Positions 3,772-62,996 of a DNA stretch of 64,000 nucleotides are shown here, one piece after another; the first letter of the stretch is position 1; every line of letters begins with the position of its first letter. Where the stretch lies: UHGV virus genome UHGV-0236300; one strand, given 5' to 3'. A model generated the notes under the pieces. That model searched no databases. It had not been told where the DNA came from and saw only the letters and a list, made by a program, of their open reading frames with translations. Origin of the DNA: a virus. The position numbers were made by a program, and so were the translations under genes.

Positions 3772-3832
3772 TAAGATGTGAGTATAAAGGGGAGGCACTC
3801 CTCCCCACAAAAACTAAGGAGAGCACCAAACG

Positions 3833-6439: not shown

Positions 6440-6468
6440 GCCCTGCCCGAAAGGGTGGGGCTTTTTGC
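6440..6468 (+). terminator. rho-independent terminator (GAAA tetraloop hairpin + T5)
   Basis: GCCCTGCCC-GAAA-GGGTGGGGC stem-loop followed by TTTTT; near-identical copy at 17441. Confidence 0.7.
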
Positions 6469-6484
6469 ATTAGGAGACAGCAAA

Positions 6485-7249
6485 TTGAAATTTATCTACA
6501 AAGAACACTACCACAAAGGTGTCGTGTGGAGTCTATTTGACGGGTCTGGTGGTGCAGTTATTGACTGGGCAAAAGCTGGGTACCTGTGCCTGTGCTTTAA
6601 TGCAGAAGGTGCTGACCACGGTAGTTATGCAGAGGTGATAACCGATCATCCTAACATTCACTATGTGGATTATTGGATTGATCCATGGTTCCCTCAAGAA
6701 ACTTTTTGCATGTATCCAGCTCCAGACTTTATTCTTGCATTTCCTCCGTGCACGCATTTAGCAGTATCCGGAGCTGCACACTTTAAGAAAAAGCTGGCTA
6801 AGGACCCACTGATCCAAATTAATGCTGTGAAAGATGCTCGGGTTGCAGAAGAGTTGGGAGAGATTTATGATTGCCCGTGGCATGTAGAGAACCCTGTAGG
6901 AGTTATGTCAACACTGTGGCGAAAACCTGATTACCGTTTTCATCCTTCGGATTATGGTGGGTATCTACCAGAGGACGATGTAAACCCATGGTTTCCTGAA
7001 TTTATAGCTCCACGTGATGCCTACCCAAAAATAACTTGCGGTTGGATAGGCAATGGATTTATAATCCCCGCCACAAAACCTGTCCCGCAAATAGTTGATG
7101 TGGTTAGTGGTTATTCCATGCAACACGCTAAGCTAGGTGGAAAGAGTGCAAGGACGAAGATGATTCGAAGCCTTACACCACGTGGCTGGGCAAGAGCTGT
7201 ATTCTTAGCAAACGAGCCTGCAGTAAGGAGAAGAATTAATGGGCAGTAA
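6485..7249 (+). CDS. C5-cytosine DNA methyltransferase-like protein (divergent, short)
   Basis: FDGSGG (motif I-like), FPPCTHLAVSG (PCQ-like motif IV with Thr for Gln), ENPVGV (ENV-like motif VI); start uncertain (TTG 6485 after SD AGGAGA; track start 6455 lies inside the terminator hairpin). Confidence 0.5.
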   Translation: MKFIYKEHYHKGVVWSLFDGSGGAVIDWAKAGYLCLCFNAEGADHGSYAEVITDHPNIHYVDYWIDPWFPQETFCMYPAPDFILAFPPCTHLAVSGAAHFKKKLAKDPLIQINAVKDARVAEELGEIYDCPWHVENPVGVMSTLWRKPDYRFHPSDYGGYLPEDDVNPWFPEFIAPRDAYPKITCGWIGNGFIIPATKPVPQIVDVVSGYSMQHAKLGGKSARTKMIRSLTPRGWARAVFLANEPAVRRRINGQ

Positions 7250-9317
7250 ATTCATGGCATCTGCATACAACCGTTTCGGTGAGCCAAACCCGAAAGCAAC
7301 TAAGTATAAAAGTGGGGGAAGTGTGAAACGAGACTATCGTGATGAAAAAGAAGTTGAAACTGTAGAGACTGTTTTAGAAAATACTAAAATTGTCCCTGTT
7401 CCACAACAAAATATTGGACTGATGGCTGCACAATATTTTGGTGTACGATCATCGCTATCCCAAGAGGATGGTGTAACTGTTACTGCCACCTACTTTCCGT
7501 ATTATGACCGCTACGGTAATCTATCTGGCTTTAAAAAGCGGGACTGGACAATCCCTAAAGAGCAAAGGGGCCATTTCTCGGTTGTTGGCATAGTAAAGGC
7601 CAACTCCCAGATGTTTGGTCAAAAGCTGTGTGCATCCTCCAACAACCGCAAGCAGATTAACGTTTGTGAGGGGGAAGGAGATGTTATTGCAGCGTGGCAG
7701 GCTGCATATCAGGTACAAGTAAAAGGAATTCTCACCAATACTAAAGCCCCGGCGAAGGTGAAGCAGTGGGCTAAAGAAGTCCAGGATGGGATTGATGCAG
7801 TTATCAACGGCGGTGATCTGGCAGGAAAACCATGCCTGCCTTTTGTCGGAATTAACTGCGGGTGTGCAAACGCCGTAGACACTTTTGCGAACAATGAGAA
7901 ATTTATCCGTAGCTACGGAACAGTAGTCCTTGCAATGGACAACGATGCAGCTAACGAGGTAGAGAAGCAAAAACACGTTATCAAAGGTGTTGAAGCTACG
8001 CATAATATCGCAGCATTTTTGATGGCTGACAACGTTTACCACGTGGAATACCCAGGTGAGGTAAACGACCCTGATGGTGTAAAAGATATTCGTGACATGC
8101 TGAAGGCTAAAAAGCTGGAAGATATTGTCAACATGTTCCGTCACCCAGTCAAATATGTGCCTGATGCTGTATCTGATTTAGAAGACTTCTCCATTGAATC
8201 TCTTCGTAAGAAGACTTCCAATGGCGTGGATATCAGTGCAGAGTTCCCTAAACTGCAGAAGATGCTGAAAGGACTCCACAAAGGCACCTTGATGATGCTG
8301 ACAGGCCCGTCTGGCGGTGGTAAAACAACTGTAGCCAAGAAGCTGGAACATTGCATTGCAAGATACTTGATGGACCCAACATGCCCTAAAGCTGATGATT
8401 ATGAAGAGGATGATCGCCTGTGCCTGATTCACCTTGAAGAGGATCCTGAGGAAGCAATCAACTCTCTGTACGCTAACCAGCTGGGGTTTGATGTTAAAGA
8501 GTTTGTTGAAGACCCCAGTCAGTTCCTGACCGATCAGGAGCACGCTGAGATTCATCAATCTTGGGCCAAGGCCGGAAAAATCAAAGTGTTCAAGCATTTC
8601 GGCTCCATCCCTGTAGATGAGCTGATCACTAAGCTTAAACAAATGGTGTGCCTGTATCACTGCCGTTACATTGTGCTGGATCACTTGTCTATGGTGATTT
8701 CAGGGCTTAATGTTAAGGATGAGCGTAAAGAGCTTGACATGGCTATGACTCAACTAGCCGCGTTCTGTAAGCAGTTTAATGTGTTTATCTTGGTGATTGC
8801 TCACCTGAAGCGCACAGAGATTGTACCTCCGAAGGATAAGGATGGAAATCCGTTACCTTTCTGGTACCCTGTACGAAAAGAGAACCTTCGCGGTAGTGCC
8901 GGATTGGAGCAACTTAGCTGGGTGGTTGTCGGGGTAGAGGCAGAGGAGATGGTGGATCGTTCCCGTGGGCGTGTCCGGCTGGTAGGTCTTAAAAACCGCC
9001 CAGCAAAAACCTTAGGTATTGCGGACACTCTAGTTATGGATCCCCACACAGGCAAGTTCCACGATGCCAGCAATTGGTATTGGGATAAAGAGATGCAGAT
9101 GTTTACAGACGGGGAAGGTGGAGAGGTTGTTTGGAGACCTCAAGCTATGTTTGAGGATCAGGAGCATGCAGTTGTAGAAACACCTGTGGGCAAGGTTGTG
9201 GCTGATAAGGTTATAACTCCTGCTGTTAACCCTGTTGACACACAGGAAGATCTTCAGTATGATGATCCGTCCTCTAACCACGTTCCTGGTTTTGAAGACG
9301 ACGAAACACCTTTTTAA
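7239..9317 (+). CDS. bifunctional primase-helicase (toprim primase + DnaB-like helicase, T7 gp4-like)
   Basis: Toprim-like CEGEGD and MDNDAAN; helicase Walker A TGPSGGGKTT, Walker B IVLDHL, LVIAHLKR; acidic C-terminus ending DDETPF. Confidence 0.85.
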   Translation: MGSKFMASAYNRFGEPNPKATKYKSGGSVKRDYRDEKEVETVETVLENTKIVPVPQQNIGLMAAQYFGVRSSLSQEDGVTVTATYFPYYDRYGNLSGFKKRDWTIPKEQRGHFSVVGIVKANSQMFGQKLCASSNNRKQINVCEGEGDVIAAWQAAYQVQVKGILTNTKAPAKVKQWAKEVQDGIDAVINGGDLAGKPCLPFVGINCGCANAVDTFANNEKFIRSYGTVVLAMDNDAANEVEKQKHVIKGVEATHNIAAFLMADNVYHVEYPGEVNDPDGVKDIRDMLKAKKLEDIVNMFRHPVKYVPDAVSDLEDFSIESLRKKTSNGVDISAEFPKLQKMLKGLHKGTLMMLTGPSGGGKTTVAKKLEHCIARYLMDPTCPKADDYEEDDRLCLIHLEEDPEEAINSLYANQLGFDVKEFVEDPSQFLTDQEHAEIHQSWAKAGKIKVFKHFGSIPVDELITKLKQMVCLYHCRYIVLDHLSMVISGLNVKDERKELDMAMTQLAAFCKQFNVFILVIAHLKRTEIVPPKDKDGNPLPFWYPVRKENLRGSAGLEQLSWVVVGVEAEEMVDRSRGRVRLVGLKNRPAKTLGIADTLVMDPHTGKFHDASNWYWDKEMQMFTDGEGGEVVWRPQAMFEDQEHAVVETPVGKVVADKVITPAVNPVDTQEDLQYDDPSSNHVPGFEDDETPF

Positions 9318-9375: not shown

Positions 9376-11799
9376 ATGAGCATGTGGTCGTTCGATTTTG
9401 AGGCCTCTGGCTTGCTGGAAGACCCAGATCTTTATTATCACTGCGGTTTGTTTAAAGAGCTGAATAAGAACCGTTTTATGCTGTTCCTTCCCCTAAATGA
9501 CCGCACACACTACTCTGAAGAGGATGTGGAGAAAGCTAAGAACTTCATTCTGGCAAAGAAGACCCTTTATACAGATTTTGAGGCTCGCATAGCAGATTTT
9601 TCAGAGTTGGAAGGCTGGCTTACAGGCAATTCAGACTGGTCACCTACGGCTTTGAACTGTCATAACTGCTACAGTTACGACTTTATGCTGATGGAAAGAT
9701 TATCCGGTATTCATTTTGATATGTTCCGTGATCCTAAATGCATGGGAACTATCAACGACCACCAGGTTAATCTGTTTGATACGTTAGCGATGAGTCGAAT
9801 CTTGTGGCCTGACCGCCCTTTGCCAAAAGGTTGTCCAGACGCAGTATTCAATCCAGTTACCAAGAAAATGCAGCCTGTTGGACCTCATGGTCTTATGGCA
9901 TGGGGCTATGCCCTTGGTAACCAGAAAGTTCAAATCGATGACTGGCGGGAGCTTCCGCTGTGGAAGTATGTGGATCGTGTGTTCGAGGACGTTATCATTC
10001 AGGAGTTGCTCTGGAAGGAGTTGGTAGCGGAATCAAAAGGTGTATTCTACGGCAAATCTGACATGCAGAACTTTATGTACGATCCTGCCAAAGAGAAGCC
10101 GAAAGGCTTCAAGAAGATCACCTGGAAGAACGCATTACGCCGAGGCATGTTACAGCACTTCCTGATGGAGCTGCAGGCTCGACAGGGGGTGTATTTCGAC
10201 ATAGATGGGGCTATTGCTTTACGTGATCGTTGCGATGCGTGGATGAAAGAGATCGCTGATCGTGTTGAACCACAGCTTCCTTTAAAAGAGTTATCAATGT
10301 CTCAGCGGCCTAAGTTCCCTGAAAAGCCGTTTAACCAGGATGGGACAATCTCCAATAATGGTTGGAAATGGTTAAAAGACAAGCTTGGCTATCCTGTGGA
10401 CATGAGTGCTTTAGAATTTAAAGCCCCTCCTAAGCGAGCATTTACCTCCACAGGGGATGTAAGTAAGATGGGGATAAAATGGTGTGAAGAGATGGGCTGT
10501 AAAGACCCCGATAAGATGGCTGATTTCTTGAGGGGGTATATCAAAGGAACTTCTACACCACACCCTTTACCTAAAGAGCTGATGGATCAGGCGATAAGTG
10601 ACCTACAGCAGAAGCGAATGCCTGACTGCAAGATACCCATGAAAATCAGCAATCAGGACGACATCAAGCGATACCTGATCAGTGCTGGTTGGCTCCCAAC
10701 AATGTGGAGAACTAAGGATGTAACTAAGGATAGCAAGAAGAAAGCTTTACCTGATGCAGATGTTGATGCACGAGTATATGCATATATGGACGAGCTTTTG
10801 GAGTCAGAGTATTGTGACCTAATTATCAACTTCTGGAACAAAACTGATGCTAAGTTCCAGACAACTGTACATAAGTTCAGAAGCTTCCCTAACTCTGAAA
10901 GAATTAAAAAGGAAGTGTTCGGGAAAATACGTAGAAAAGCCAGAGCGCTTATTACTTCTCCGCAACTGAAAGATACGTTTGGGCACCTGTGCCCGAATCT
11001 TGAAAAATTGAACGGAGAGATGGCTAAAGATATCGTTTTGTGGTTATCATTGCGAAACCGTAGATCGGTCCTTGATCCAATCAAGGAAGATAAGGTTGAT
11101 ACTGGTCTTCTTAATCATCCACGTTTGAAGATTGACCACAAACTTCCTGCTAAAAGTTCTGGATTAACAAACACTTCCAGACAGAAACATAGTATTTGTG
11201 CAAACATGCCTAAACCATCTCCTAAAGTGGTTATGGGTAAAGAGATGCGTAGTCTGTGGGGTGTTCCTCCGGGATACTTTGAGATCGGTATTGACGGGTC
11301 CAACTTAGAGCAGCTCATCGGGGCCTGGGGTGCCTTTGAGTTTGACAACGGTCTGTATTATGATGTTGTAAGTAACGGGGACGCGCACCAAAACAATGCT
11401 GAGGCATATACAAAAGTAGCAGGTAGAGAGGTGTCCCGTAACGATGGTAAACCTATCACGTATGGGGTTATGTATGGGGCACAAAAAGATAAAGTTGCAG
11501 ATATGCTGGATATCTCTCCCGAACTGGGGCAGAGAGTAATCGATGCTCTCTGGGATGCCAACCCAGGTCTTAAGGGGCGCAAAGAGGATCTGGAGAAATT
11601 CTGGGAAGCAACAGGTAAGAAATTTATCTACTCTTTTGACGGGCATGCTATTTGGACACGCTCTAAACACTCTTTGCTTAATGCATATCAGCAAAATGGC
11701 GGTGCATCACTGTGTGACCTAGTTGGGATACTCATGCACCACCAGATGGTGAAGCGTGGATGGTATGATGAGGGTGTTCGTCGTATTATTTATTACCAT
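9376..11799 (+). CDS. DNA polymerase, family A (T7 gp5-like), exon 1
   Basis: N-terminal exo motif FDFEASGL and AWGYALG; motif A IDGSNLE, motif B KPITYGVMYG; ORF stops right after ...IIYYH-K, the H being the His of motif C (HDE). Confidence 0.8.
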
Positions 11800-12641
11800 A
11801 AATAACATTGTGGCTTCGTGCAGTGATGCACGTCGAAAACCTCTTTAATTGACGGGAAGGCTAAGTTGACTTTTACGCCTAAACATGGTAAAAGCTCAAT
11901 ATGCTAATCCGCAGCGAAGACTAAAGGGGTGTAGTTAAAATGGCTAGATCAGTTGATTATCACGGATATACCGTGTTTGATGATGGAACAATACCTTTAT
12001 CGAAACGTGATCATACAACAATGTTTTGTTTTGATAATGGTAGAGGTTACCTTTGCGTAACCATGCTCATCGAGGGGAAGCAGTGCACAAAAGGTGTCCA
12101 CCACTTGGTTGCTGAATGCTTTGTACCGAACCCTGATCCTGAAAAGCTCACATGGGTGAACCATAAGGATGGAAATAAGTACAACAATGCATACTGGAAC
12201 TTGGAATGGACTACCCCTGGCGGAAATATCAAACACGCCTACGATAATGAACTCAGAGTAAGGCCAGTCGGTGAGTATAATGCCAACGCTGTACTGACCG
12301 AGGATGAGGTAACGGAGATTTGTGAACTGTTGCAGAGTGGTCTACGACAATGCGAGATTAGGGATCTTGGGTATCCTTATGAGACGGTTAGGGCCATAAA
12401 GCAAAGAAGACAGTGGAAACATATCTCTAAAAACTACACCTGGTAGTAACGTTCAGAGACTATCGAAAGCATAGCTCCAACATAGTTTGGTGTGAAGAAG
12501 CGAGTAGAGTAGGCCAGCAAGTGCGGTCGAAATGAGAGGTGCCTTGGTGACAAGGCAGTGAGATAGTCCGATCCATACAGGAAACCGTATGGCTGTGCAC
12601 GTAATGGTGCGGGGTAGCTTAACGACCTACCTGAACTATTG
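11800..12641 (+). mobile_element. group I intron interrupting the DNA polymerase gene at motif C, carrying an HNH homing endonuclease ORF
   Basis: Exon 1 ends in U, intron ends in G before GATGAG; IGS-like GUGG near 5' end; conserved P (AATTGACGGGAAGG ~11847), Q (AATCCGCAGC ~11906), R (GTTCAGAGACTA ~12451), S (AGATAGTCC ~12561) elements. Confidence 0.8.
11940..12446 (+). CDS. HNH homing endonuclease (intron-encoded)
   Basis: HNH motif VNHKDGNKYNN...NLEW; lies between intron elements Q and R. Confidence 0.8.
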   Translation: MARSVDYHGYTVFDDGTIPLSKRDHTTMFCFDNGRGYLCVTMLIEGKQCTKGVHHLVAECFVPNPDPEKLTWVNHKDGNKYNNAYWNLEWTTPGGNIKHAYDNELRVRPVGEYNANAVLTEDEVTEICELLQSGLRQCEIRDLGYPYETVRAIKQRRQWKHISKNYTW

Positions 12642-12995
12642 GATGAGTACCAACTTCAAGTGCCTGACACACCTAAGTATAAAACTGTATACACCTTCGA
12701 CACAATTGAAGAGCTGGAAACATTTAAAGCCCAACAAGAGGCTAAACTTCATGTGTTCGACGGTCATAAGTACAAAAAGGCACGCAAAGATGAGGACGGA
12801 AACGAAGTGGTTGACAAGGACGGAAATACGGTATACGATCCTATCTTGAACGATGACGGAAAGCTTGAACTTATCTGGAGCCCTGTGGGCGAAATGGTGG
12901 TGCATTGCTTCTGGCAGGCTTCTAAAATGATGGGCGTTCCGTTCCAGATCACAGGTGAATACTTGTGCGGTCGTAACTGGGGCGATTGTCACTAA
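12642..12995 (+). CDS. DNA polymerase, family A (T7 gp5-like), exon 2
   Basis: Begins DEYQLQV (completes HDE motif C); ends ...GRNWGDCH, matching the T7 DNA polymerase C-terminus ...GPNWAICH; in frame with exon 1 after removing the intron. Confidence 0.8.
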   Translation, partial: DEYQLQVPDTPKYKTVYTFDTIEELETFKAQQEAKLHVFDGHKYKKARKDEDGNEVVDKDGNTVYDPILNDDGKLELIWSPVGEMVVHCFWQASKMMGVPFQITGEYLCGRNWGDCH

Positions 12996-41013: not shown

Positions 41014-41298
41014 CTACCAGGTCACTGTCAAGTAGGCAACTGTGTTATTTTTCTCCGGGGAGATGCCAACAACATCCACCCGCAGACCTCCTGCCCTCAA
41101 ATCCCCAACGATGTGTGGGAAGTAGTCTGAGAGGTGTGATGGAAGATTTATCGAAAATCCGCATCCCAGAAAGCCTGCTAACGCCTTATTTTGTATCTCC
41201 CCTACAATCGCATCATAAATGGAGTTAAGCTCGTCAGGGAGAGTTACAGGACGTTTTAGCGCTAACTGGTGCAACTTGTCCTTAGCACTCATTTTCAT
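41014..41298 (-). CDS. hypothetical protein
   Basis: Track ORF 41014..41367; likelier start is the internal ATG forming an ATGA overlap with the MTase stop. Confidence 0.45.
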   Translation of the reverse strand: MKMSAKDKLHQLALKRPVTLPDELNSIYDAIVGEIQNKALAGFLGCGFSINLPSHLSDYFPHIVGDLRAGGLRVDVVGISPEKNNTVAYLTVTW

Positions 41299-41828
41299 TT
41301 CAAGTCTGCCTCCGGAGGTGCCAACCACATAAATGGTGGTAGGTCTAAACGGTTCTTCTTGTCCCACACAAAATATGCATATGCTTGCCCGTCAGTTCTG
41401 CCATTAGATTGGAATGATGGACGCTTAGATATTGTGATCACAGTGGTAGGGGCATTATCAAGCCACCATTCAAATCTGGCCTTGCTTTCCAGAAAATTAA
41501 GACGCAAAAGCATAATAACTACGTCAGCATCTTTCAACGCCTTGTCCACAAACTCACGAGCCAGGCTGTACGGCGGGTTGGTGATAATACAGTCAACATG
41601 GTTGTATTCCGTATTCAGATAGTCAACACCTTCTTGGATTTCTCCCCATGCAGATCCTAACGGCATACGGGAGTAGAATACACCTGAGGCGCTATTCCTG
41701 CAAGGCTCCAAATAGGTCCAATCTTCTGGGAACGGAATGAGGTTATACAACCCTTCTGCACACCACTCTGGTGTCACATATTCATCATAGGCGTTACGTT
41801 GTTCGTCAGGTTTTCTAGCACAAGTCAT
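41295..41828 (-). CDS. small DNA N6-adenine methyltransferase (phage Dam-like)
   Basis: Catalytic motif IV ITNPPYS; small size (177 aa) as in phage T1-type Dam proteins. Confidence 0.6.
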   Translation of the reverse strand: MTCARKPDEQRNAYDEYVTPEWCAEGLYNLIPFPEDWTYLEPCRNSASGVFYSRMPLGSAWGEIQEGVDYLNTEYNHVDCIITNPPYSLAREFVDKALKDADVVIMLLRLNFLESKARFEWWLDNAPTTVITISKRPSFQSNGRTDGQAYAYFVWDKKNRLDLPPFMWLAPPEADLK

Positions 41829-55090: not shown

Positions 55091-55882
55091 CTATAGATCA
55101 TACCTGGTCTCCAAAATGTATTGTAGTTCTTTCTTGCCTATACTCTTCATTCCAGCAGTCTTACCTGCTTCTTCTTGAAAAGAAGAATAGCATTCAGCAA
55201 ACACTCTGTCAACACCGTCAACTAAAGATTTTATGAAATATGTTGATTCTTCAGATTTTGGGTCATCATCCCCCAATACTTTTCCAGCATTATACCCAAC
55301 ACGTCTTATGCAGAAGTCGTAGTCATCTGGTGTACTAAAAGAAAATAGCTTATTCTCCCCAATCTCTACAGGATCCCTATTGCACACCTTTTTCTCCCAA
55401 ATTTGGAAAACACATGGCACGTCATAAGGTTTGCCGTTGAGTAAAAACGAGTTCTTGGGGCACCTTTCACTGTAAATAAGGTGCATCGACATGTCCAGTT
55501 TGTTTGCAAAAAATATTTTTTCAAATGTCCGTGGCAAGATGAAGGCTATAGCCCCACCAGGCTCTAGCAATGATGCGCAGTGGTTAAAAAACTTGCAAGC
55601 TAAAGACGAATTTTTGCCGAATGGGGGATTACCTATGAAGACATCAGCCTTAGGGTACACCTCTAAGAAGTCTGCCTTAATACACGGTGTTGGGCCTTCA
55701 AATTCAGGATCTGGTACCAAATCGTACGACAGTATCTCTGAAAATAGTTTTGAAAAAGAACCCTTTCCAGCAGAAGGCTCAACGTATGCACAACTCCCAT
55801 ACTTACCTTTTACTTTACCAACAAGATATTCTGCATACTCAGGGTCTGTGTAATATTTGTCGTTGGACTCTTTCTTGCTCAA
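55091..55882 (-). CDS. DNA N6-adenine methyltransferase (gamma-class)
   Basis: YYTDPEYAEYLV, motif I VEPSAGKGSF before motif IV IGNPPFG (gamma order). Confidence 0.7.
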   Translation of the reverse strand: MSKKESNDKYYTDPEYAEYLVGKVKGKYGSCAYVEPSAGKGSFSKLFSEILSYDLVPDPEFEGPTPCIKADFLEVYPKADVFIGNPPFGKNSSLACKFFNHCASLLEPGGAIAFILPRTFEKIFFANKLDMSMHLIYSERCPKNSFLLNGKPYDVPCVFQIWEKKVCNRDPVEIGENKLFSFSTPDDYDFCIRRVGYNAGKVLGDDDPKSEESTYFIKSLVDGVDRVFAECYSSFQEEAGKTAGMKSIGKKELQYILETRYDL

Positions 55883-55928
55883 AGTGCCTCCAAAAATGAA
55901 AAGGGAGGCGCAAGCCTCCCTCTACTTG

Positions 55929-56912
55929 TCAGATTATCTGAATCAGGGTGTTTTTCATCTCTTCTCTGGTACGGATGTTGTTACGATCACGAACAACAGA
56001 TCCACAACCTTCGCAGCGGTATGTTTTAAATGCACTCAGCTGAGTATACGCCAAAGCTTCTTCCTCGTGAAGGTGTTCTCCACCACAACGTGGGCAACGA
56101 ACTTTTGACTCCTCATCTTGGTAGTACAATGACATGTTAGGGTGCTGCTTGGCAAACGGACGCGCCAGCAAATACAGGCCTTCCAGAGACAAGATGTCCC
56201 CAACATTATACTCCCGCATCTGTTTAAACGCCTCAAGATCACCATGAACACACTTGATCCACATTTCAAATGTGTGGTCAATCAGCTTCTGTCGGGCCAG
56301 TTGGAAGTATTTACATGCATACTCTAACGTGTTTGCATTCAAACGGAATGCCTTTTTAATCATCTTGAGGGTGTCAACCTCTTTGTATGGACTTGTTGGC
56401 GGCAAACCGTGAAATGCAAATCGTTGGTTGGCCCACCCACAGTCAAAACCAGAGTTGTGCGCTACTGCGACATCACATTTATCCAGATAATACCACAAAT
56501 CTTGAATCAGTTCAAGATCGTTGTGGATATCCTCGCCCCACATTTTGTAATCGGGAAGAGCACAGTCAACCACGCTAGGGCTGTCTAACCATTTACCTGC
56601 GAAAGTTAGCATATAAGGCATAATTTCAATACCGCAGGTTTGAATGTTGGTCTTATAGTGCCCAAAGAACCAGCCGTTTGTTGGGGATGTCTCTGTATCA
56701 TACACCCAAACTTTAGCGCCCTTGTGTTCTTCAAGGAAGCGCTCCGTTGCCTCCCCTACAATCTCTGACATATTCTCTTGTGCACGTTTAAGCTGTAGCC
56801 GGATCCAGCTCTCACGTGACTCACGACCTAAAAATTCACGAGCAATCTGTCTATTAGTGTATCCCTGTTGCTTTAGTGTTAAAATTTGCTCAAGAGTTAA
56901 CTTTGTCATCAT
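55929..56912 (-). CDS. DEDDy-type 3'-5' exonuclease with N-terminal HTH-like and C-terminal zinc-ribbon segments
   Basis: Exo I VWVYDTETS, Exo II AHNSGFD, Exo III YNVGD; C-terminal CPRCGG...CEGCG. Confidence 0.7.
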   Translation of the reverse strand: MMTKLTLEQILTLKQQGYTNRQIAREFLGRESRESWIRLQLKRAQENMSEIVGEATERFLEEHKGAKVWVYDTETSPTNGWFFGHYKTNIQTCGIEIMPYMLTFAGKWLDSPSVVDCALPDYKMWGEDIHNDLELIQDLWYYLDKCDVAVAHNSGFDCGWANQRFAFHGLPPTSPYKEVDTLKMIKKAFRLNANTLEYACKYFQLARQKLIDHTFEMWIKCVHGDLEAFKQMREYNVGDILSLEGLYLLARPFAKQHPNMSLYYQDEESKVRCPRCGGEHLHEEEALAYTQLSAFKTYRCEGCGSVVRDRNNIRTREEMKNTLIQII

Positions 56913-56924
56913 CGTTAAGATTCC

Positions 56925-57146
56925 TTAGTAAAACTGAAGAATGTCTTTTAAAGCGAAGTCACGATATTCGCCCTTGTCTACATCAAATGCATGCATCAAC
57001 CACTGATCTTCTTTATGATAATCTGTAGAGCCAAACCATAAACTAGGCTCAGTAACGCAGCGATCTGCAACAACACCTTTCCAGTTACGGTATTTCATCC
57101 TGATCAGAACTGAATCGCAAGGATTGAATACCTTTTTCATCTCCAT
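56925..57146 (-). CDS. hypothetical protein
   Basis: Short ORF overlapping the endonuclease VII 3' end; start probably internal. Confidence 0.4.
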   Translation of the reverse strand: MEMKKVFNPCDSVLIRMKYRNWKGVVADRCVTEPSLWFGSTDYHKEDQWLMHAFDVDKGEYRDFALKDILQFY

Positions 57147-57690
57147 AGAAATCTCTCTCCTCAGTTTTCTTTATAAACTCCTGCATGTAGGCCTCAATAG
57201 CCTCATGCTTGGTATACTCTGAATTAATGACAAGATCTAGATCCGATTCTGCCCGTGCAATAATCGTAGCTTTAGAGCATCTCCTCAAGAACTTTGTCAT
57301 ATCGTCCCTGTAGTTTTTGTGGAGCGGGAAGTCGCTGTAGTCTTTCTCCAGATAGTCAGCCATCCGGCGCAACGCCTCTGATAAACTGCAATCTGTATAC
57401 TCGTTACAGTATTTCATCCAGTATTTAAGCACATACCCCTCAAAGGTATTAGTGCATTGGGACAAAACACCCCTGCAACGACCAGTCAGATGATCATGAT
57501 CTAAACAAGGCTTACGAAGTGGTTCGCACAAGATCGGATCAAGACCATCCTGCTCTTCTGACAATTCTTTCCGAAAGTTAGCTATGTCCTTAGAATCTTT
57601 TAGCCACCCGCTATGAACGGGGGCTTTGACAGCTTTCTTTCTTATTTTACGCTTTGCGATAATCCCTCCAGATGCGCCCTGCCTATCCAA
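57085..57690 (-). CDS. endonuclease VII-like junction-resolving enzyme
   Basis: CLDHDHLTGRCRGVLSQCTNTFEG parallels the T4 gp49 zinc/active-site segment HLDHDHELNG...RGLLCNLCN..EG. Confidence 0.75.
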   Translation of the reverse strand: MDRQGASGGIIAKRKIRKKAVKAPVHSGWLKDSKDIANFRKELSEEQDGLDPILCEPLRKPCLDHDHLTGRCRGVLSQCTNTFEGYVLKYWMKYCNEYTDCSLSEALRRMADYLEKDYSDFPLHKNYRDDMTKFLRRCSKATIIARAESDLDLVINSEYTKHEAIEAYMQEFIKKTEERDFYGDEKGIQSLRFSSDQDEIP

Positions 57691-58271
57691 TAAGCATCTG
57701 CGAGATCGGCCTTACCTTGTACCAAATTGATCCCATCTAGGAACCCCGGTTCAGATACTTCGCAGGCCTTAACCATCAACTTTTTATCCATCGTAACAGG
57801 TTTCTTCACAGTAAGCTCCTTACCTGTCCTTTTGTCAAGCTTTTTCTTCTCCTCAAAAGCAAGTTCTTCAGGAAGATGACTACGAGCAAACTTTTTGGCA
57901 GTTGTTGGTGTCACTGTGTGAACCTTAAACAGGCCGTCATTTTCACAATCTGCTAAAGCATCCCAAAGCATAACTTCAAGACCGTAAAACAACCCAGCCA
58001 GTTCACGTGTGGCATCTCCTCGCGATCCGAAGGAGAGCCCTTCCATAACCACGGTGTCAACGCCGTGCGTGTGGATATAATATCTAACCTGTTTGCAGAT
58101 CCAGTCAATACGCTCAGCAGCTGTTGCAAAAGAAACCGTCCCTGGTTTCTTCTCTTTTGCAGACGAGCTTTGGGTTCGTAACACAACCTTATGAACAGGC
58201 CTACCATCGTCCCATACAACGCAGGCAGTGTGGGTAAGAGACTGGTCTATAGACAGCAGTCTTTCTCTCAT
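57642..58271 (-). CDS. putative RuvC-like Holliday junction resolvase
   Basis: N-terminal LSIDQSLTHTACVV (RuvC-like Asp motif) and VVMEGLSFGS...ATRELA (Glu motif); weak, by eye. Confidence 0.4.
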   Translation of the reverse strand: MRERLLSIDQSLTHTACVVWDDGRPVHKVVLRTQSSSAKEKKPGTVSFATAAERIDWICKQVRYYIHTHGVDTVVMEGLSFGSRGDATRELAGLFYGLEVMLWDALADCENDGLFKVHTVTPTTAKKFARSHLPEELAFEEKKKLDKRTGKELTVKKPVTMDKKLMVKACEVSEPGFLDGINLVQGKADLADAYWIGRAHLEGLSQSVK

Positions 58272-58594
58272 GCTGTTTCCTCTTCATCTGGGGCATAAGC
58301 TTTGTCTTTGAACAACACAAGGGAGCAAAGCTTAACATCTGTTTCCACACTGGTAAACATGCATAACCGCTCGCCCTCGATCAGCTCACAGTCCTCTTTT
58401 AAAACAGCAGACCATACACGATCATCTGCGTAATCATCAGTATACAAGATGTATGCAATAGTATCATCTTCATACAATCGCCACATACCTGTGGCAACAA
58501 TAAATGTATTTTTTGTTTTAATGGTGCCTGTTGTATGATCATCCTCAAAAACAGCTTCCATAATTGCATTATCTACAGAATTTTTAGTCATCAA
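58268..58594 (-). CDS. hypothetical protein
   Basis: ORF coupled to its neighbours. Confidence 0.5.
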   Translation of the reverse strand: MMTKNSVDNAIMEAVFEDDHTTGTIKTKNTFIVATGMWRLYEDDTIAYILYTDDYADDRVWSAVLKEDCELIEGERLCMFTSVETDVKLCSLVLFKDKAYAPDEEETA

Positions 58595-59730
58595 ATTGCT
58601 CCAACATTTCTAAGAACGTTAACAAGTTTTGTTTGATCATTGAATGTTCGCTTCATATACAAACAGTCAAAAATTATACTCATCCACTGGCCTACGGAAA
58701 TCCTACGGTCGATACCATTGAAATCAGTATACTTAACGGCACCTTTCGGAAACCATTTTTTATACTGATCAATAATTGCTAACCACATCTCTTTCGGTGT
58801 GCTGCACTGAGACAGTAAGGAGAATGCAGATGCATCTCCAAACTTTCCTTTACCAATAAGCCCTTGGTAAGGCTTAATATTGTCAGCCGAGTCACCACAC
58901 AGCATTTGATAACCGAAGAACAACATTCCATACCCACCAACATCGCCGTTTGGTTTCATGAATATGTTACCCATACCGTTATCAATGAGCATAGGTGTCT
59001 CTCTTACAAAATCACCTTTATCGTTCCTCATCGGATCGAATACAAGCCCAGGAAGTGTTCGCTGGTCCTTATCTATAGAGATAATAAACTTGTTGAACTT
59101 TCCTGTTTTCTGGTAGTGGTTCCAACCTTCAAATTGCTGGATAGCTAACCAGTCGTCAGCTTCAATACCGTTGATCACTTGAGCGTTATATTGCTTTTGT
59201 AGATACTGTCTTGCATCTTCAAGCAACAGTGGTCGAAGAGTATTGTTACGGTTGGCTTTATATCGTTCCGGCATGGGAAGATCTAGTCTGAAATTGCCTG
59301 TTCCTCCAAGCACCCCTACGCACCGATCTTCAGGAATACCGAGATAGTTAAGGACTGCATTAGCTTTACACTTAATTGTGTGCAAGCAGTTCTCTACAGG
59401 ATCAGGGGTTTGGATATCCAAGACATCAAAATCTTCGCGTGTCCACGGAATAAACTCCTTGCCAGCTTTTTTACATGCAGCTTCACGGTTGGTGTTCTCA
59501 GCCTTTAACCAACCGCCAACTGCGTTCTTCTGCCTCCCCCAAAATTCTGTTCGTGTTTTAAACACCTTCTTACGTCCGGAGGCTTTATGTGTTACCTCAA
59601 TTGTCCTTTTTTCACAACTTGCTGCAGCTTGATATGCAACCTGATCGAAGTCATAATAAACTATAGCGTCAGGTTCAAGAAGATCAGCTAGACAATCTAT
59701 AGACTCAATAAGTGGATATTCTCTACTCAA
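58591..59730 (-). CDS. 5'-3' exonuclease / flap endonuclease (FEN family)
   Basis: LCGDSADNIKPYQGLIGKGKFGDASAFSLL parallels the Pol I 5'-nuclease motif GDSSDNIPGVPGIGEKTA..LL. Confidence 0.7.
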   Translation of the reverse strand: MSREYPLIESIDCLADLLEPDAIVYYDFDQVAYQAAASCEKRTIEVTHKASGRKKVFKTRTEFWGRQKNAVGGWLKAENTNREAACKKAGKEFIPWTREDFDVLDIQTPDPVENCLHTIKCKANAVLNYLGIPEDRCVGVLGGTGNFRLDLPMPERYKANRNNTLRPLLLEDARQYLQKQYNAQVINGIEADDWLAIQQFEGWNHYQKTGKFNKFIISIDKDQRTLPGLVFDPMRNDKGDFVRETPMLIDNGMGNIFMKPNGDVGGYGMLFFGYQMLCGDSADNIKPYQGLIGKGKFGDASAFSLLSQCSTPKEMWLAIIDQYKKWFPKGAVKYTDFNGIDRRISVGQWMSIIFDCLYMKRTFNDQTKLVNVLRNVGAI

Positions 59731-60031
59731 AGACCCTCCTGTTAGTTACTCTGCAAGATGGTTGGATGCTGTAATGGAATGCATCATCACTCTCTGCAAT
59801 AAGAGACTCAACATCCCAATATTTTTCAAAAAGGAACGGATTAGACCCCCAGTGGTGGGTTATTTTCATCAAGGAGTCTGGTATCAGATAGCCACAAATC
59901 TTAATTACATCACCAGGTTGAATGGTGTTTTCATGAAGGTTGCTTGCCTTCTTCAGGATCATACCTTTATGATTCTCGTTTGCATACAACTGGACAATAT
60001 CTTTATCTTCAACAATAAAAATTTTAAGCAT
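59723..60031 (-). CDS. hypothetical protein
   Basis: ORF; no motif. Confidence 0.5.
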   Translation of the reverse strand: MLKIFIVEDKDIVQLYANENHKGMILKKASNLHENTIQPGDVIKICGYLIPDSLMKITHHWGSNPFLFEKYWDVESLIAESDDAFHYSIQPSCRVTNRRVFE

Positions 60032-60090
60032 GTCTAGTTCTCCTAGTTTATAAATATCTGACTGATAATATCAGATTAATAGAACTTTTG

Positions 60091-60384
60091 TCAAGACTTT
60101 TTAGTCTTTCTTGGAGAGCCTTTTGTTGATCTTTTCCTTTTGTGGTAGATTCCAAGTGCGGCGTTTTCTTGGGCGCACGTTTTAACAGTTCTCAGACAAG
60201 AACTTTCAGCTTTAGGCAGGTTTAACTCCCACCAACCAAGCCAGTAAAGTTCTGATTCAGACAATTGCTCAGATTCAGCCTTCCGATACAATGATTGCAT
60301 ACCTCTGATAATGTCGTCCAGAGGCGTATCAAATACAAAAGCTGTCTTATCGAATTTCTCTTTTACAGGTTTCTTAGCCATCAA
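60091..60384 (-). CDS. hypothetical basic protein
   Basis: ORF; Lys/Arg-rich C-terminus. Confidence 0.5.
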   Translation of the reverse strand: MMAKKPVKEKFDKTAFVFDTPLDDIIRGMQSLYRKAESEQLSESELYWLGWWELNLPKAESSCLRTVKTCAQENAALGIYHKRKRSTKGSPRKTKKS

Positions 60385-60838
60385 GGTAACCCTCTATCCA
60401 CGAAAAGTCAGTCTTCCATTCCGGAACTTTACTAAGCTCACGCCACTCTGCAAAGCAGTCTCGGTAATACGCCTCTGCCATACCCTTGGTGATCTTATTC
60501 ACCTTAGCCAACTGATTAACTGCCTGAGCATACTTTCCACGGATATTTGCTAACCCAGGATGCACCGATGTGTGACAATCTGGGCACAACGCTATCAGTC
60601 CGACAAGCCGGATCACTCCCTCTTCGAAAGTGTAAAGTTCATGACACTCCACCGGATGTTTGCTGCCTTTACCGCCGCACACCTCACAAGTATAGTTGGC
60701 TTCTCTGTAGCACTTCTTACGGATCTTATCCCACTCACTCTTCTTCACAGCGTTTCGGAGATTATTATACCAAGCTGTCTCTGGGATCAGCTGTACAATA
60801 AGCCTGCGTTCAGACTTCATTAAACGTCCGTCTTCCAC
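60374..60838 (-). CDS. zinc-binding protein, possible HNH-like nuclease fold
   Basis: CEVCGG...HPVECHELY...LCPDCH cysteine/histidine spacing reminiscent of zinc-bound HNH motifs. Confidence 0.4.
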   Translation of the reverse strand: MEDGRLMKSERRLIVQLIPETAWYNNLRNAVKKSEWDKIRKKCYREANYTCEVCGGKGSKHPVECHELYTFEEGVIRLVGLIALCPDCHTSVHPGLANIRGKYAQAVNQLAKVNKITKGMAEAYYRDCFAEWRELSKVPEWKTDFSWIEGYLDG

Positions 60839-60847
60839 GTATCCTCC

Positions 60848-61054
60848 TCATTCAAAGAAATGGGTGCGAGGGCAGGAACCTGCCTCGCCTTGTTTCACAA
60901 GCTCGTAGAGCTCACCTTGGCTTGTCTCATAAAGGCAAATACGTTTACCATTGTCCCGATATACATCCACAAGATACGCTGTTTCACCTGCAAACACGAC
61001 ACCACAGGCAAGGCATGCTGCCATGAACAAAATTGCCAACAGAAAATCTTTCAT
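60848..61054 (-). CDS. small secreted or lipoprotein-like Cys-containing protein
   Basis: N-terminal signal-like FLLAILFMAACLACGVVFAG; immediately downstream of the endolysin. Confidence 0.5.
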   Translation of the reverse strand: MKDFLLAILFMAACLACGVVFAGETAYLVDVYRDNGKRICLYETSQGELYELVKQGEAGSCPRTHFFE

Positions 61055-61117
61055 GGTTAAACCCTCTTGAGTACTTTATGAGGTAACAATACCACATCCA
61101 TGTGGTCATGTCAATGA

Positions 61118-61588
61118 CTAATCTAGGACAACACCGCCTGACTTTTTAAACACCTCGATCAACTTTTCGATCTTCTGTTCGTGCTGACCATACCCTGCAC
61201 CAGGAAGGCTTGCCCATCGGGATCTGCAAAGATGGATGGCCTGATGAATACGACCTTCATCAATATCATCGAGCGCCTTGCACTCACGGATCAATTGTAG
61301 TGCGATCTTATCCTGACTGGCAGGGCCAAAATCTGGTAATCCTAACTGTTTCATATAGTGTTTAGCAAACTTCTCCAAAACTTGGTAGCGACCCGCAGCA
61401 GAGGAGGTAAGTTTAGCATTTAGCTTAACGTACACACCTGGATGCTTACTGTAATCGCTAAACAGCTTGCCACCGACTATGACATCATAGCCACGATCCT
61501 TGGTAGGTTGTCTACCATTATCTGTGCCTTCTGAATATGCGATCATATCCAAGAAAGCTTTTCGTTGAACATTTTTATCAAGTTTCAT
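61118..61588 (-). CDS. endolysin, lambda R-like lytic transglycosylase
   Basis: NVQRKAFLDMIAYSEGTDNGRQPTKDRGYDVIVGG...GRYQVL...WASLPGAGYGQHE is near-collinear with lambda R, including the catalytic Glu in SEGTD. Confidence 0.9.
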   Translation of the reverse strand: MKLDKNVQRKAFLDMIAYSEGTDNGRQPTKDRGYDVIVGGKLFSDYSKHPGVYVKLNAKLTSSAAGRYQVLEKFAKHYMKQLGLPDFGPASQDKIALQLIRECKALDDIDEGRIHQAIHLCRSRWASLPGAGYGQHEQKIEKLIEVFKKSGGVVLD

Positions 61589-61712
61589 TTTTCATACTCT
61601 CCAGTTTACTCATAACTAACCAGATCAACAACACTGCATAATGTGGTTATGCAGGGGCCAATTGAAAAACCATCATTCAATTGGCTACCGTTATCTACTG
61701 AACATCCCTACA

Positions 61713-62996
61713 TTATTCCAGCACCTCCCAAGTGTCTGGGTTAACATTTCGGACACAGATGCCGACAGGGAATTGGTAGTTGTTGTCTTCTGTCCTTGCT
61801 TGATATTTGAAGGTGACAAACTTGCCGATCATTTCCTGCATCCTGTCATAGCTGCGCTCCTCGTGCGTACCTTTCATCTTCATTTTAACAACGATACCTT
61901 CCTTGTCAACACAGATAAGAACACCTTCATCATTCTTATCTTTCTCAACGTCAATAACTTTCACCTCAGCATCGTTGAACTTTTTCCATTTCAATGCTTC
62001 GGATGTTCGCTGACCGTATTCGTATTTACCACAGAAGTTACGCATGATAGTACCTTCATATCCTTCGGACATGAATACACCAACAGATTCTTCGCAATGA
62101 TCAACTGTGTACGCAAGCTCTGCGTCAACAACCTTGATATTGTCAAGCATCAGAGTGGCAATGGTATCTTCTGCATCCATGAGATCCTTGCATCGTCCAG
62201 ATTCTGTTTCCGGATCCCACCATACCTTGTCACTAGGGATGTCGAAAATATGATACTCTAAGTCATAGCTACAGTACCCTCCGTAACGCAAATCATCACG
62301 AACAGGCTCAACATCAACAGGAATATCTACCTTATTGAAGTTTTTGTATGTTGATAAGCCTGCCTTAATTGCGGCATGACGGCGTTTTTTATCTGCCTCG
62401 TAGTCTTTATCGATCTCGGCCTGAATCTCTTCCTGTGTGCGCCACCGTTTAGCAAGAGACACTATTTTCTGCAGAGGCAGACCATGAATATAGATCTCTC
62501 CGTCGAGCTGTTTAATCCCGGTGGTGAAGTGGAAAGAACGAAGTTGCTCCAGAAGCTTTCCTTGAATAGGGTAGGACTTATTACCACGGGAAATAAATTT
62601 AGGCTCACCGTTTTGGAAAACAACCAGTAGACGAAGGCCATCTAACTTACGCAAGATCCAGCAAGGCAATTTAAGTGCCTTTCCACGCTTCAGGTAGTCA
62701 TGCACCAGCATGGGTAAAAGGTCAACACCCTGCTCGCAATCTTCCATATTTTCAACATACCCCAGACGGACTTGTTTTTCCCACTTACTGATCGCTTCCA
62801 GCTCAGCCTGTTGCTCAGCTGTAGTTTCATTGGCACGACCCACGTTCTTAGGTGTGCAGATCGTCTCTTTGTATTGCAGTTTACCATCAAGCTTGCCAAA
62901 CTCTACGATAACCTTATCACCATCCGTGAATACTTTCCACTGTTGGTAGCTGCCATCTTTGTTCAGTGCGTACAGTGTTGTTTTAATCTGATGCAT
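61713..62996 (-). CDS. ATP-dependent DNA ligase
   Basis: Adenylation motif I KLDGLR (KxDGxR), motif IV-like EGTIMR, motif V-like KWKKF. Confidence 0.8.
   Translation of the reverse strand: MHQIKTTLYALNKDGSYQQWKVFTDGDKVIVEFGKLDGKLQYKETICTPKNVGRANETTAEQQAELEAISKWEKQVRLGYVENMEDCEQGVDLLPMLVHDYLKRGKALKLPCWILRKLDGLRLLVVFQNGEPKFISRGNKSYPIQGKLLEQLRSFHFTTGIKQLDGEIYIHGLPLQKIVSLAKRWRTQEEIQAEIDKDYEADKKRRHAAIKAGLSTYKNFNKVDIPVDVEPVRDDLRYGGYCSYDLEYHIFDIPSDKVWWDPETESGRCKDLMDAEDTIATLMLDNIKVVDAELAYTVDHCEESVGVFMSEGYEGTIMRNFCGKYEYGQRTSEALKWKKFNDAEVKVIDVEKDKNDEGVLICVDKEGIVVKMKMKGTHEERSYDRMQEMIGKFVTFKYQARTEDNNYQFPVGICVRNVNPDTWEVLE

Follow-up and report, generated by a model that had tools for sequence, protein, structure and literature searches.

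Why should one virus encode two different types of junction resolvase back to back? The question is raised by the virus genome UHGV-0236300, of which we analysed a stretch of 64,000 nucleotides (the window). An initial annotation, made from the letters alone, described positions 55929–62996 of the window as a dense toolkit for DNA repair and recombination: a DEDDy exonuclease, a T4 endonuclease VII-like protein, a RuvC-like resolvase, a FEN, a possible HNH-like zinc nuclease and an ATP-dependent DNA ligase. Its limits are exact gene boundaries, 55929 being the last base of the exonuclease open reading frame (ORF) and 62996 the first base of the ligase ORF; 57642–58271 (RuvC-like) and 60374–60838 (HNH-like) are likewise complete ORFs. 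All six enzyme calls hold, the HNH-like one on weaker evidence, and together the six genes make up about 72% of the 7,068 bases. The description as dense needs one qualification: the 12 ORFs of the interval, all on the minus strand, also encode an endolysin, a protein of 68 aa and four small products of unknown function. In our judgement the best explanation, and a likely one, is that the interval is a conserved Vequintavirus DNA-processing block that serves both replication and the debranching of DNA before packaging.

To which phages does this block belong? The window is that of a Vequintavirus, an rV5-like myovirus of E. coli, and its remainder outside the interval matches the same genomes. 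The interval itself is matched by 125 phage records, 115 of which cover at least 80% of it at 90–98% nucleotide identity. With few exceptions these are Escherichia phages that belong to the genus Vequintavirus (rV5, FV3, B9-1, ECP32, NHEP1 and the BASEL phages). There is no new sequence here: public Vequintavirus genomes already carry annotations for the block, in which the genes appear as ATP-dependent ligase, endolysin, HNH or homing endonuclease, 5′ exonuclease, ‘hypothetical’, ‘RNaseH’ or ‘RuvC-like resolvase’, endonuclease VII and DnaQ-like exonuclease. The rV5 genome paper names the ligase and the exonuclease, filing the latter under nucleotide metabolism, and names no RuvC-like protein; our literature search for Vequintavirus together with Holliday junctions found nothing. 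In pairwise comparison with three relatives, the ratio of non-synonymous to synonymous polymorphism (pN/pS) was 0.00–0.13 for every gene except the 73-aa ORF (about 0.25). Since these ratios are low and the ORFs are conserved across phage records, we regard them as real, constrained genes and not chance ORFs. Family or fold membership, catalytic residues, synteny and purifying selection are established for the block.

A RuvC-like gene and an endonuclease VII gene side by side

Is the 209-aa product of 57642–58271 (minus strand) a RuvC-like protein, a call that the initial annotation itself considered weak? The sequence matches PHROG 159 (‘RuvC-like Holliday junction resolvase’) at 3e-38; Pfam RuvC (PF02075) is carried by distant homologues only (P0019, P0021; large protein collection). 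A search of the Protein Data Bank (PDB) with the single sequence gave nothing useful, and a family profile and a structure model were needed. Across 21 aligned homologues E77 never varies, and D9, D189 and D192 hardly do. In the family profile (HMMER), the positions of D9 and E77 align with those of D. radiodurans RuvC; the catalytic tetrad taken as reference is D7, E66, D138 and D141 of the E. coli enzyme. The protein also contains the motif DLADAYWIG. An AlphaFold (AF2) model built from the homologue alignment has a predicted local distance difference test score (pLDDT) of 91.3. When this model was submitted to Foldseek, ranks 1–13 were all occupied by RuvC structures, with E values of 8e-8 to 2e-4 and target-normalised template-modelling (TM) scores of 0.67–0.77. 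The best was T. thermophilus RuvC 4ld0 (8e-8), followed by the RuvC proteins of D. radiodurans, P. aeruginosa and E. coli and that of phage bIL67 (4ktw). A β-hairpin insertion of about 35 residues (approximately 131–160) is absent from relatives of 157–161 aa. Profile and structure searches did not, then, reject the RuvC assignment, though a direct match to Pfam RuvC failed; PHROG 159, the Foldseek ranking and the conserved acidic tetrad D9, E77, D189 and D192 uphold it for fold and active site. Judged by this model, 57642–58271 is a RuvC-fold junction resolvase at the level of fold and active site, with junction cleavage predicted, and the ‘hypothetical’ or ‘RNaseH’ label of public records is firmed up to that extent.

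What lies next to it? The adjacent gene on the same strand encodes a T4-type endonuclease VII (EndoVII) at 57085–57660, about 191 aa if counted from an ATC codon at 57660; the mechanical ORF and most annotations start instead at a TTG at 57690 (201 aa). Pfam Endonuclease_7 (PF02945) is matched at 31.7 bits, above its cutoff of 23.6, and phrog_423 at 4e-37. The alignment with T4 EndoVII (PDB 1e7d, E 2e-4) extends over T4 residues 37–152 of 157, thereby covering the C-terminal helical domain of the T4 domain-swapped dimer. The equivalents of T4 D40, H41, H43, N62 and E65 are D64, H65, H67, N81 and E84 (numbered from the TTG), within motifs LDHDH and N..EG that align with those of T4. All five are invariant in six diverse homologues, which include those of GAP31, phiTE, Pseudoalteromonas phage H101 and Vibrio phage PS17B-2 as well as gp49 of the T4-like Aeromonas phage 31. 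The Pfam match, the 1e7d alignment and the retained catalytic residues leave the T4 endonuclease VII-like call intact. The zinc site is another matter. T4-like gp49 displays CxxC...CxxC, whereas the rV5-like and marine homologues have no conserved cysteine column; in T4 EndoVII the site consists of C23, C26, C58 and C61. We conclude from the alignment that the rV5-like and marine proteins are a zinc-less variant of the T4 family. The missing cysteines and the probable AUC or AUA start considered below go beyond public annotation.

How stable is the pairing? Across the Vequintavirinae the HNH-like, FEN, RuvC-like, EndoVII and exonuclease genes follow one another in a constant order, and in Seunavirus GAP31 and Certrevirus phiTE, as here, one small ORF separates FEN from the RuvC-like gene and another separates EndoVII from the exonuclease. 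Pseudoalteromonas phage H101 and Vibrio phage PS17B-2 keep FEN...RuvC-like–EndoVII at 29–33% identity. In 24 of 60 IMG/VR loci that encode RuvC-like relatives, EndoVII is the next gene downstream and lies on the same strand; FEN is upstream in 23 of these 24, the exonuclease downstream in 23 and the HNH-like gene upstream in 17. At more distant loci FEN is followed by the RuvC-like gene, or the latter stands alone (Shewanella phage KASIA, N4-like VBP47). As far as these loci tell, FEN–RuvC-like is the more widespread linkage, and the rV5-like lineage and its marine relatives are characterized by a stable pairing of the RuvC-like gene with EndoVII.

Are the two resolvases redundant, as was first proposed? 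That they stand back to back is correct, and the description of the pairing as unusual agrees with a comparative survey of jumbo phages, in which RuvC-like and EndoVII-like resolvases are nearly complementary in their distribution. Redundancy, on the other hand, is unlikely. Since the two genes have kept their synteny through deep divergence and purifying selection acts on each of them (pN/pS ≤0.13), the two enzymes probably do not duplicate one another. The stable pairing of resolvase families that elsewhere tend towards mutual exclusion offers a tractable system in which to ask why a virus needs both.

The other four enzymes

Upstream of the pair, behind a small ORF, lies the gene for a FEN-type 5′–3′ exonuclease/flap endonuclease (58591–59730, minus strand, 379 aa), which matches phrog_107 at 1e-71. 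In 24 sequences D27, D29, E190, D192, D193, D220, D222, D280 and D283 are invariant, together with Y157, K158 and R161. The window protein reaches 13.7 bits against Pfam 5_3_exonuc_N, below the cutoff of 34.3, and a single-sequence PDB search returned nothing useful. PF02739 is carried by homologues that are 31–35% identical across more than 90% of the length, one of which has PF01367 too, and the family profile matched the PDB 5′–3′ exonuclease 9l56 (7e-5), the 5′ nuclease domain of Taq polymerase and ExoIX. Phage T5 D15, T4 RNase H and T7 gp6, which belong to the FEN family, turned up in none of the searches. PHROG 107, the invariant carboxylates with YKxxR, and the link through the family profile to solved 5′ nucleases bear out the FEN call. 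The ATP-dependent DNA ligase (61713–62996, minus strand, 427 aa; phrog_114, 2e-82) is recognizable as such, its adenylation domain matching Pfam DNA_ligase_A_M at 2.1e-9 (37.8 bits, cutoff 26.2), its OB domain DNA_ligase_OB_2 at 1.8e-7 (31.5 bits, cutoff 28), and its motif I beginning at K117 (K-L-D-G). FEN and ligase are most simply seen as lagging-strand maturation functions, and the initial description of them as repair enzymes finds no support in this.

The last gene of the interval, at 55929–56912 (minus strand, 327 aa), encodes a stand-alone DEDDy 3′–5′ exonuclease with an N-terminal helix–turn–helix (HTH) and a C-terminal four-cysteine zinc ribbon (phrog_403, 9e-111). It belongs to a very large family of 3,461 representative clusters. 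Invariant in 30 sequences are D72, E74, D157, Y235 and D239 and, in the ribbon, C273, C276, C300 and C303. The window protein scores 21.7 bits against RNase_T, under the cutoff of 24; in the family PF13482 is matched by 22 of 30 members, RNase_T by 18 and PF10108 (PolB-exo-like) by 7, in addition to HTH families, and the family profile finds the Pol III epsilon subunit 1j53 at 3e-7. The invariant motifs, the HTH-family matches and the four ribbon cysteines sustain the call in all three parts.

Might this exonuclease proofread for the phage polymerase? The family-A polymerase encoded elsewhere in the window and the exonuclease match the same part of PHROG 17 (profile position 670 onward), and the polymerase has D-x-E at residues 7–9; BLASTP of one against the other showed no similarity. 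By the first two of these signs the polymerase probably has an exonuclease domain of its own, which casts doubt on the label ‘polymerase exonuclease subunit’. The stand-alone enzyme is, for the same two reasons, a doubtful proofreader.

How good is the case for an HNH-like zinc nuclease at 60374–60838 (minus strand, 154 aa), the other call that was considered weak? The protein matches PHROG 5200 at 2e-72 and eight further HNH PHROGs. In the family alignment C51, C54, E64, H66, E67, C85, C88, H89 and H93 are invariant and C65 is nearly so. The curated models stay below their cutoffs, at 13.9 bits for Pfam HNH (21.4) and 19.8 bits for the HNH region of NCBIfam IscB (175). PDB searches with the single sequence and with the profile returned HNH enzymes only, at E values of 0.015–0.33: a group II intron maturase, ScoMcrA, EcoKMcrA and the HNH protein of phage GVE2. 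The structure model is very confident (pLDDT 96.7), yet Foldseek found no significant match to it in the PDB. The motif reads ECHE and not HH or DH, the canonical Asn position aligns with Gly, and the register of the general base is uncertain. Thus the HNH PHROGs, the HNH-only PDB matches and the invariant Cys and His residues support the call on weaker evidence than for the other enzymes. The most fitting description is that of a divergent HNH-superfamily protein, consistent with the evidence, with an uncertain catalytic register.

Close homologues of about 45% identity also occur on very long metagenomic contigs (L011, a 496-kb contig from JGI, and L012–L015). These contigs have dense, short, unannotated ORFs, with genes for Thg1, IF3 and NadA nearby, which suggests huge phages or other unusual genomes. 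The neighbours of the homologues there are mostly unannotated and phage-like and gave no clue to function.

The start of endonuclease VII and the role of the block

Where does EndoVII begin? The first ATG in its frame occurs only at residue 92 or later. The annotated TTG at 57690 is without a Shine–Dalgarno (SD) site; in NHEP1 a stop at codon 4 closes the frame behind it, and the annotators of that genome called only a C-terminal fragment without the active site. In a 94%-identical IMG/VR contig (L019) the TTG falls outside the open frame of EndoVII and is thus unusable. An SD-like GGAGGG is present at 57664–57669 (minus strand), inside the 3′ end of the RuvC-like gene and 3 nt before the ATC codon. 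The same arrangement, GGAGG or GGGGG followed after 3–4 nt by ATC (ATA in one), precedes the conserved basic N-terminal tail of EndoVII in 12 sequences from at least seven lineages, and it is kept although the overlapping C-terminus of the RuvC-like protein diverges between lineages. In ten lineages no canonical start occurs upstream of the basic tail. Two Erwinia-phage-like contigs (L024 and L032) have the stop–start overlaps TAATC and TAATA. For GAP31, RefSeq already annotates a non-canonical start at an isoleucine codon, and that codon is ATC; Certrevirus and marine relatives use GTG or ATG.

We conclude that EndoVII probably starts at the conserved AUC at 57660, behind a strong SD within the 3′ end of the RuvC-like gene, and that little of it is probably made, its initiation being coupled to translation of the upstream gene. 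A further proposal is offered tentatively and goes beyond what we would call probable: phages of the Vequintavirinae type may have an obligatory two-resolvase system, in which a zinc-less EndoVII is made only by coupled initiation or re-initiation at AUC or AUA behind an SD in the last codons of the RuvC-like gene. If this is true, a low EndoVII-to-RuvC ratio would be fixed, distinct and non-redundant substrates would be implied for the two junction nucleases, and the codon would be among the very few conserved AUC starts in an E. coli phage. The T4 counterpart, EndoVII, is tightly regulated and is toxic when overexpressed. When the study of AUC initiation appeared, only two non-canonical starts had been confirmed in E. 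coli, both of them AUU.

What might the block do? The window encodes a DnaB-like, gp4-type helicase (7239–9317) that relatives annotate as primase/helicase, a PIF1-like helicase and the family-A polymerase (from 9376). Behind a T7-like replisome formed by the first and the last of these, FEN and ligase would remove primers and seal nicks. The RuvC-like protein and EndoVII would cleave four-way junctions and other branches of the replicating concatemer and so keep headful packaging from being blocked. The genome is probably circularly permuted, as related Certrevirus genomes, and only these, have been shown to be. The two resolvases would be kept as a pair for different substrates or different timing and not as spares, EndoVII being supplied sparingly from its AUC codon. 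The exonuclease and the HNH-like protein would be core members of the block, for which end trimming, nicking or a share in the breakdown of host DNA are all possible. We infer the substrates, the timing, the division of labour and the EndoVII start codon from the arrangement and conservation of the genes.

Several results weigh against this picture. The RuvC-like window protein has no Pfam or NCBIfam match, PF02075 not being reached, and its sequence-based PDB matches are marginal (E 0.088). PHROGs identified no phage recombinase or annealase in 43 window ORFs, a set comprising nearly all those of 120 aa or more plus the interval, with smaller ORFs and the rest of the genome outside the scan; recombination-dependent replication, which the resolvase pair had been taken to suggest, has no direct support among these 43. 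Promoter-like matches number 22, barely above the 16.8 expected from shuffled sequence, and the promoters and terminator of the interval are consensus matches. Initiation at AUC in E. coli proceeds at about 1–2% of the AUG level, and in this window the TTG located 30 nt upstream of the ATC is a possible start. Finally, an EndoVII without the T4 zinc cysteines may differ from the T4 enzyme in stability and specificity.

Could the nucleases serve mainly to break down the host chromosome for nucleotide salvage, in the manner of T7 endonuclease I (gp3) and exonuclease gp6, and not to mature phage DNA? The T7 pair does both, which lends this idea some credit. On its own strand the block adjoins genes for deoxynucleoside monophosphate (dNMP) kinase, ThyX, NrdAB/NrdDG and a nucleotide pyrophosphohydrolase, and the placing of the exonuclease under nucleotide metabolism in the rV5 genome paper points the same way. 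But FEN, RuvC and EndoVII are structure-specific enzymes and not bulk DNases, and the two roles are not mutually exclusive; we consider host breakdown as the main role unlikely, though it deserves to be kept in mind. We would put at the same low level the idea that only one of the pair is a true junction resolvase, the RuvC-fold protein being an RNase H-like nuclease of primers or flaps, or the zinc-less EndoVII acting mainly on mismatches or nicks. Several records do annotate the RuvC-like gene as ‘RNaseH’, the EndoVII of this clade has lost its structural zinc site, and the near-complementary distribution of the two families in jumbo phages means that their co-occurrence suggests diverged function. 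Yet Foldseek ranks RuvC resolvases first and not RNase H, and the RuvC-fold protein has a tetrad and a C-terminal DxxDA helix motif of the RuvC kind. EndoVII has lost none of the five T4 catalytic residues, and its alignment takes in almost the whole T4 protein, C-terminal domain included. The activity of primer removal is already supplied by FEN.

Is the toolkit instead partly an accident of insertion, with the HNH-like gene a selfish homing endonuclease? The BASEL-collection records label it ‘putative homing endonuclease’, and genuine homing endonucleases do insert in the region, one extra HNH in FV3 and two extra HNH genes plus an EndZ in phiTE. The gene at issue, however, holds the same position beside FEN across genera at about 50% identity; its distribution tracks that of the RuvC-like gene (240 against 268 phage records, with near-identical genus counts); and its pN/pS of 0.02–0.04 is among the lower values of the block. 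The public ‘homing endonuclease’ thus behaves like a core gene, and we think its selfish origin very improbable. Hardly any weight should be given to a last alternative, that ribosomes slip into the −1 frame near where the RuvC-like gene ends and so make EndoVII as a RuvC–EndoVII fusion. The EndoVII frame of the Vequintavirinae is indeed −1 relative to that of the RuvC-like gene, A-AAA runs lie beside the RuvC-like stop codon in the overlap with an SD-like element 12–15 nt upstream, and a canonical EndoVII start is missing in many lineages. The same place, however, is occupied by GGGATTA, GGGTTTA or GGGGCTA, with no slippery heptamer conserved, and A-runs are expected in Lys/Arg-rich coding sequence. 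The stop–start overlaps of L024 and L032 are typical of re-initiation. Distant relatives start EndoVII in ordinary ways, H101 by ATGA coupling and phiTE by an SD and GTG with an intervening gene; in PS17B-2 the relative frame is a different one. Without a conserved slippery site, and given the ordinary starts of distant relatives, the fusion is the less likely course.

Neighbouring genes and known counterparts

The remaining ORFs of the interval, all on the minus strand, lie outside these arguments. The endolysin gene (61118–61588, 156 aa; phrog_90, 5e-55; named endolysin or lysozyme in relatives) falls outside the DNA toolkit. The five others are of unknown function. A 68-aa ORF (60848–61054, phrog_4641) has a hydrophobic N-terminus by eye and is called ‘putative membrane protein’ in rV5 and FV3. 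The 97-aa ORF (60091–60384, phrog_6208; pN/pS 0.02–0.11) has no Pfam match, and the 102-aa ORF (59723–60031, phrog_14449, ‘transposase’) has no significant one. PHROGs and several GenBank records label both as ‘transposase’ or ‘transposase-like’, for which Pfam and NCBIfam offer no support; the labels look like a propagated annotation error. A 108-aa ORF (58268–58594, phrog_7583) sits between FEN and the RuvC-like gene, a position filled by small ORFs in GAP31 and phiTE as well. The 73-aa ORF (56925–57146; phrog_3715, 1e-25) has weak WYL-like Pfam matches below cutoff and shares 62 nt with the 3′ tail of EndoVII, where conservation is poor; its position between EndoVII and the exonuclease is likewise kept by small ORFs in other genera (GAP31, phiTE).

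How is the interval transcribed? A sigma-70-like promoter match on the minus strand at 60065–60094 (TTGACA-18-TATTAT, 11 of 12 consensus positions, with TG) precedes a unit that would run from the 102-aa ORF to the exonuclease, and a second sigma-70-like consensus match on that strand, at 61114–61086, is upstream of the 68-aa ORF. An intrinsic-terminator-like hairpin on the minus strand (55900–55923; 10 pairs, 6 of them GC, with a T-rich tail) directly follows the exonuclease stop codon, and in phiTE a terminator is annotated at the equivalent place. From these elements the interval appears to comprise at least three transcription units, of which the last (60094 to 55900) would contain the 102-aa ORF, FEN, the 108-aa ORF, the RuvC-like gene, EndoVII, the 73-aa ORF and the exonuclease, with ligase and HNH-like genes in upstream units. 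The rV5 late-promoter motif TGGTAAAATA is absent both from the stretch upstream of EndoVII and from the operon head, its sole match in the region being inside the HNH-like ORF, and an Rfam scan of the interval found no structured RNA.

Extra genes occur inside the block in relatives. FV3 has one HNH gene between the 68-aa ORF and the endolysin (L002, 8195–8878), NHEP1 has a 219-bp ORF of unknown function (L001, 7908–8126), and phiTE (L017) has two HNH genes and one EndZ at 2810–3322, 3815–4330 and 7691–8227. By this pattern the region appears to be a hotspot for the insertion of mobile endonucleases. The family-A polymerase gene of the window (9376–12995, plus strand) is interrupted: its ORF stops at 11805, a second exon is likely at about 12639–12995, and between them lies an HNH homing-endonuclease ORF (11940–12446; phrog_59, 2e-38). 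Rfam matches a group I intron at 11790–12046, below the gathering score (31.1 bits, local E 7.5e-6). In the AlexBoehm record the polymerase is joined from two pieces, with a homing endonuclease inside.

At least four DNA methyltransferase-like proteins are also encoded in the window, at 3833–5176 and 6455–7249 on the plus strand and at 41295–41828 and 55091–55882 on the minus strand (phrog_67, 757, 799 and 5172/799, respectively), and one of these genes lies directly downstream of the exonuclease terminator. Twenty ‘Campylobacter phage’ records (host C. jejuni) are about 94% identical to the window over the whole interval, those listed carrying no annotation; they are probably mislabelled or contaminant assemblies.

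How does the block compare with known systems? In a well-sampled phage genus this is a routine annotation result that changes little, and its points of interest are modest: the conserved resolvase pair, the zinc-less EndoVII and the apparent, conserved non-AUG start of EndoVII. The public relatives rV5, FV3, B9-1, ECP32, NHEP1 and AlexBoehm (BASEL) have the same 12 genes in the same order at 94–98% nucleotide identity, and differ from the window by small indels only, apart from the additional 219-bp ORF in some and the inserted HNH homing endonuclease in FV3. The HNH-like protein has CxxC...CxxCH with invariant His residues, a putative counterpart of the zinc scaffold of EcoKMcrA, phage GVE2 HNH and the En domain of the group II intron maturase. 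FEN resembles the 5′ nuclease domain of Taq Pol I and E. coli ExoIX (Xni) in its acidic clusters and its YKxxR, EADD, DKD and GDxxDN motifs, but has about 100 extra N-terminal and internal residues and by itself falls under the Pfam cutoff. The exonuclease has the DEDDy motifs and family Pfam matches of the DnaQ-like and PolB-exo-like enzymes (PF13482 RNase_H_2, PF10108 DNA_pol_B_exo2), from whose stand-alone members it differs by the added HTH and four-cysteine ribbon.

And the pair itself? The RuvC-like protein shares the RNase H-like fold (target-normalised TM 0.72–0.77) and the expected D-E-D-D tetrad with bacterial RuvC (4ld0, 1hjr) and lactococcal phage bIL67 RuvC (4ktw); unlike these, to which it is 13–17% identical, it lacks a direct Pfam RuvC match and a RuvAB partner and bears a β-hairpin insertion. 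EndoVII resembles T4 endonuclease VII (gp49; PDB 1e7d, 1en7 and 2qnc) in matching Endonuclease_7 above cutoff and in its invariant catalytic equivalents. Unlike the T4 enzyme, the protein of this clade is without the four zinc cysteines, has a basic N-terminal tail and a probable AUC start, and adjoins a RuvC-like gene.

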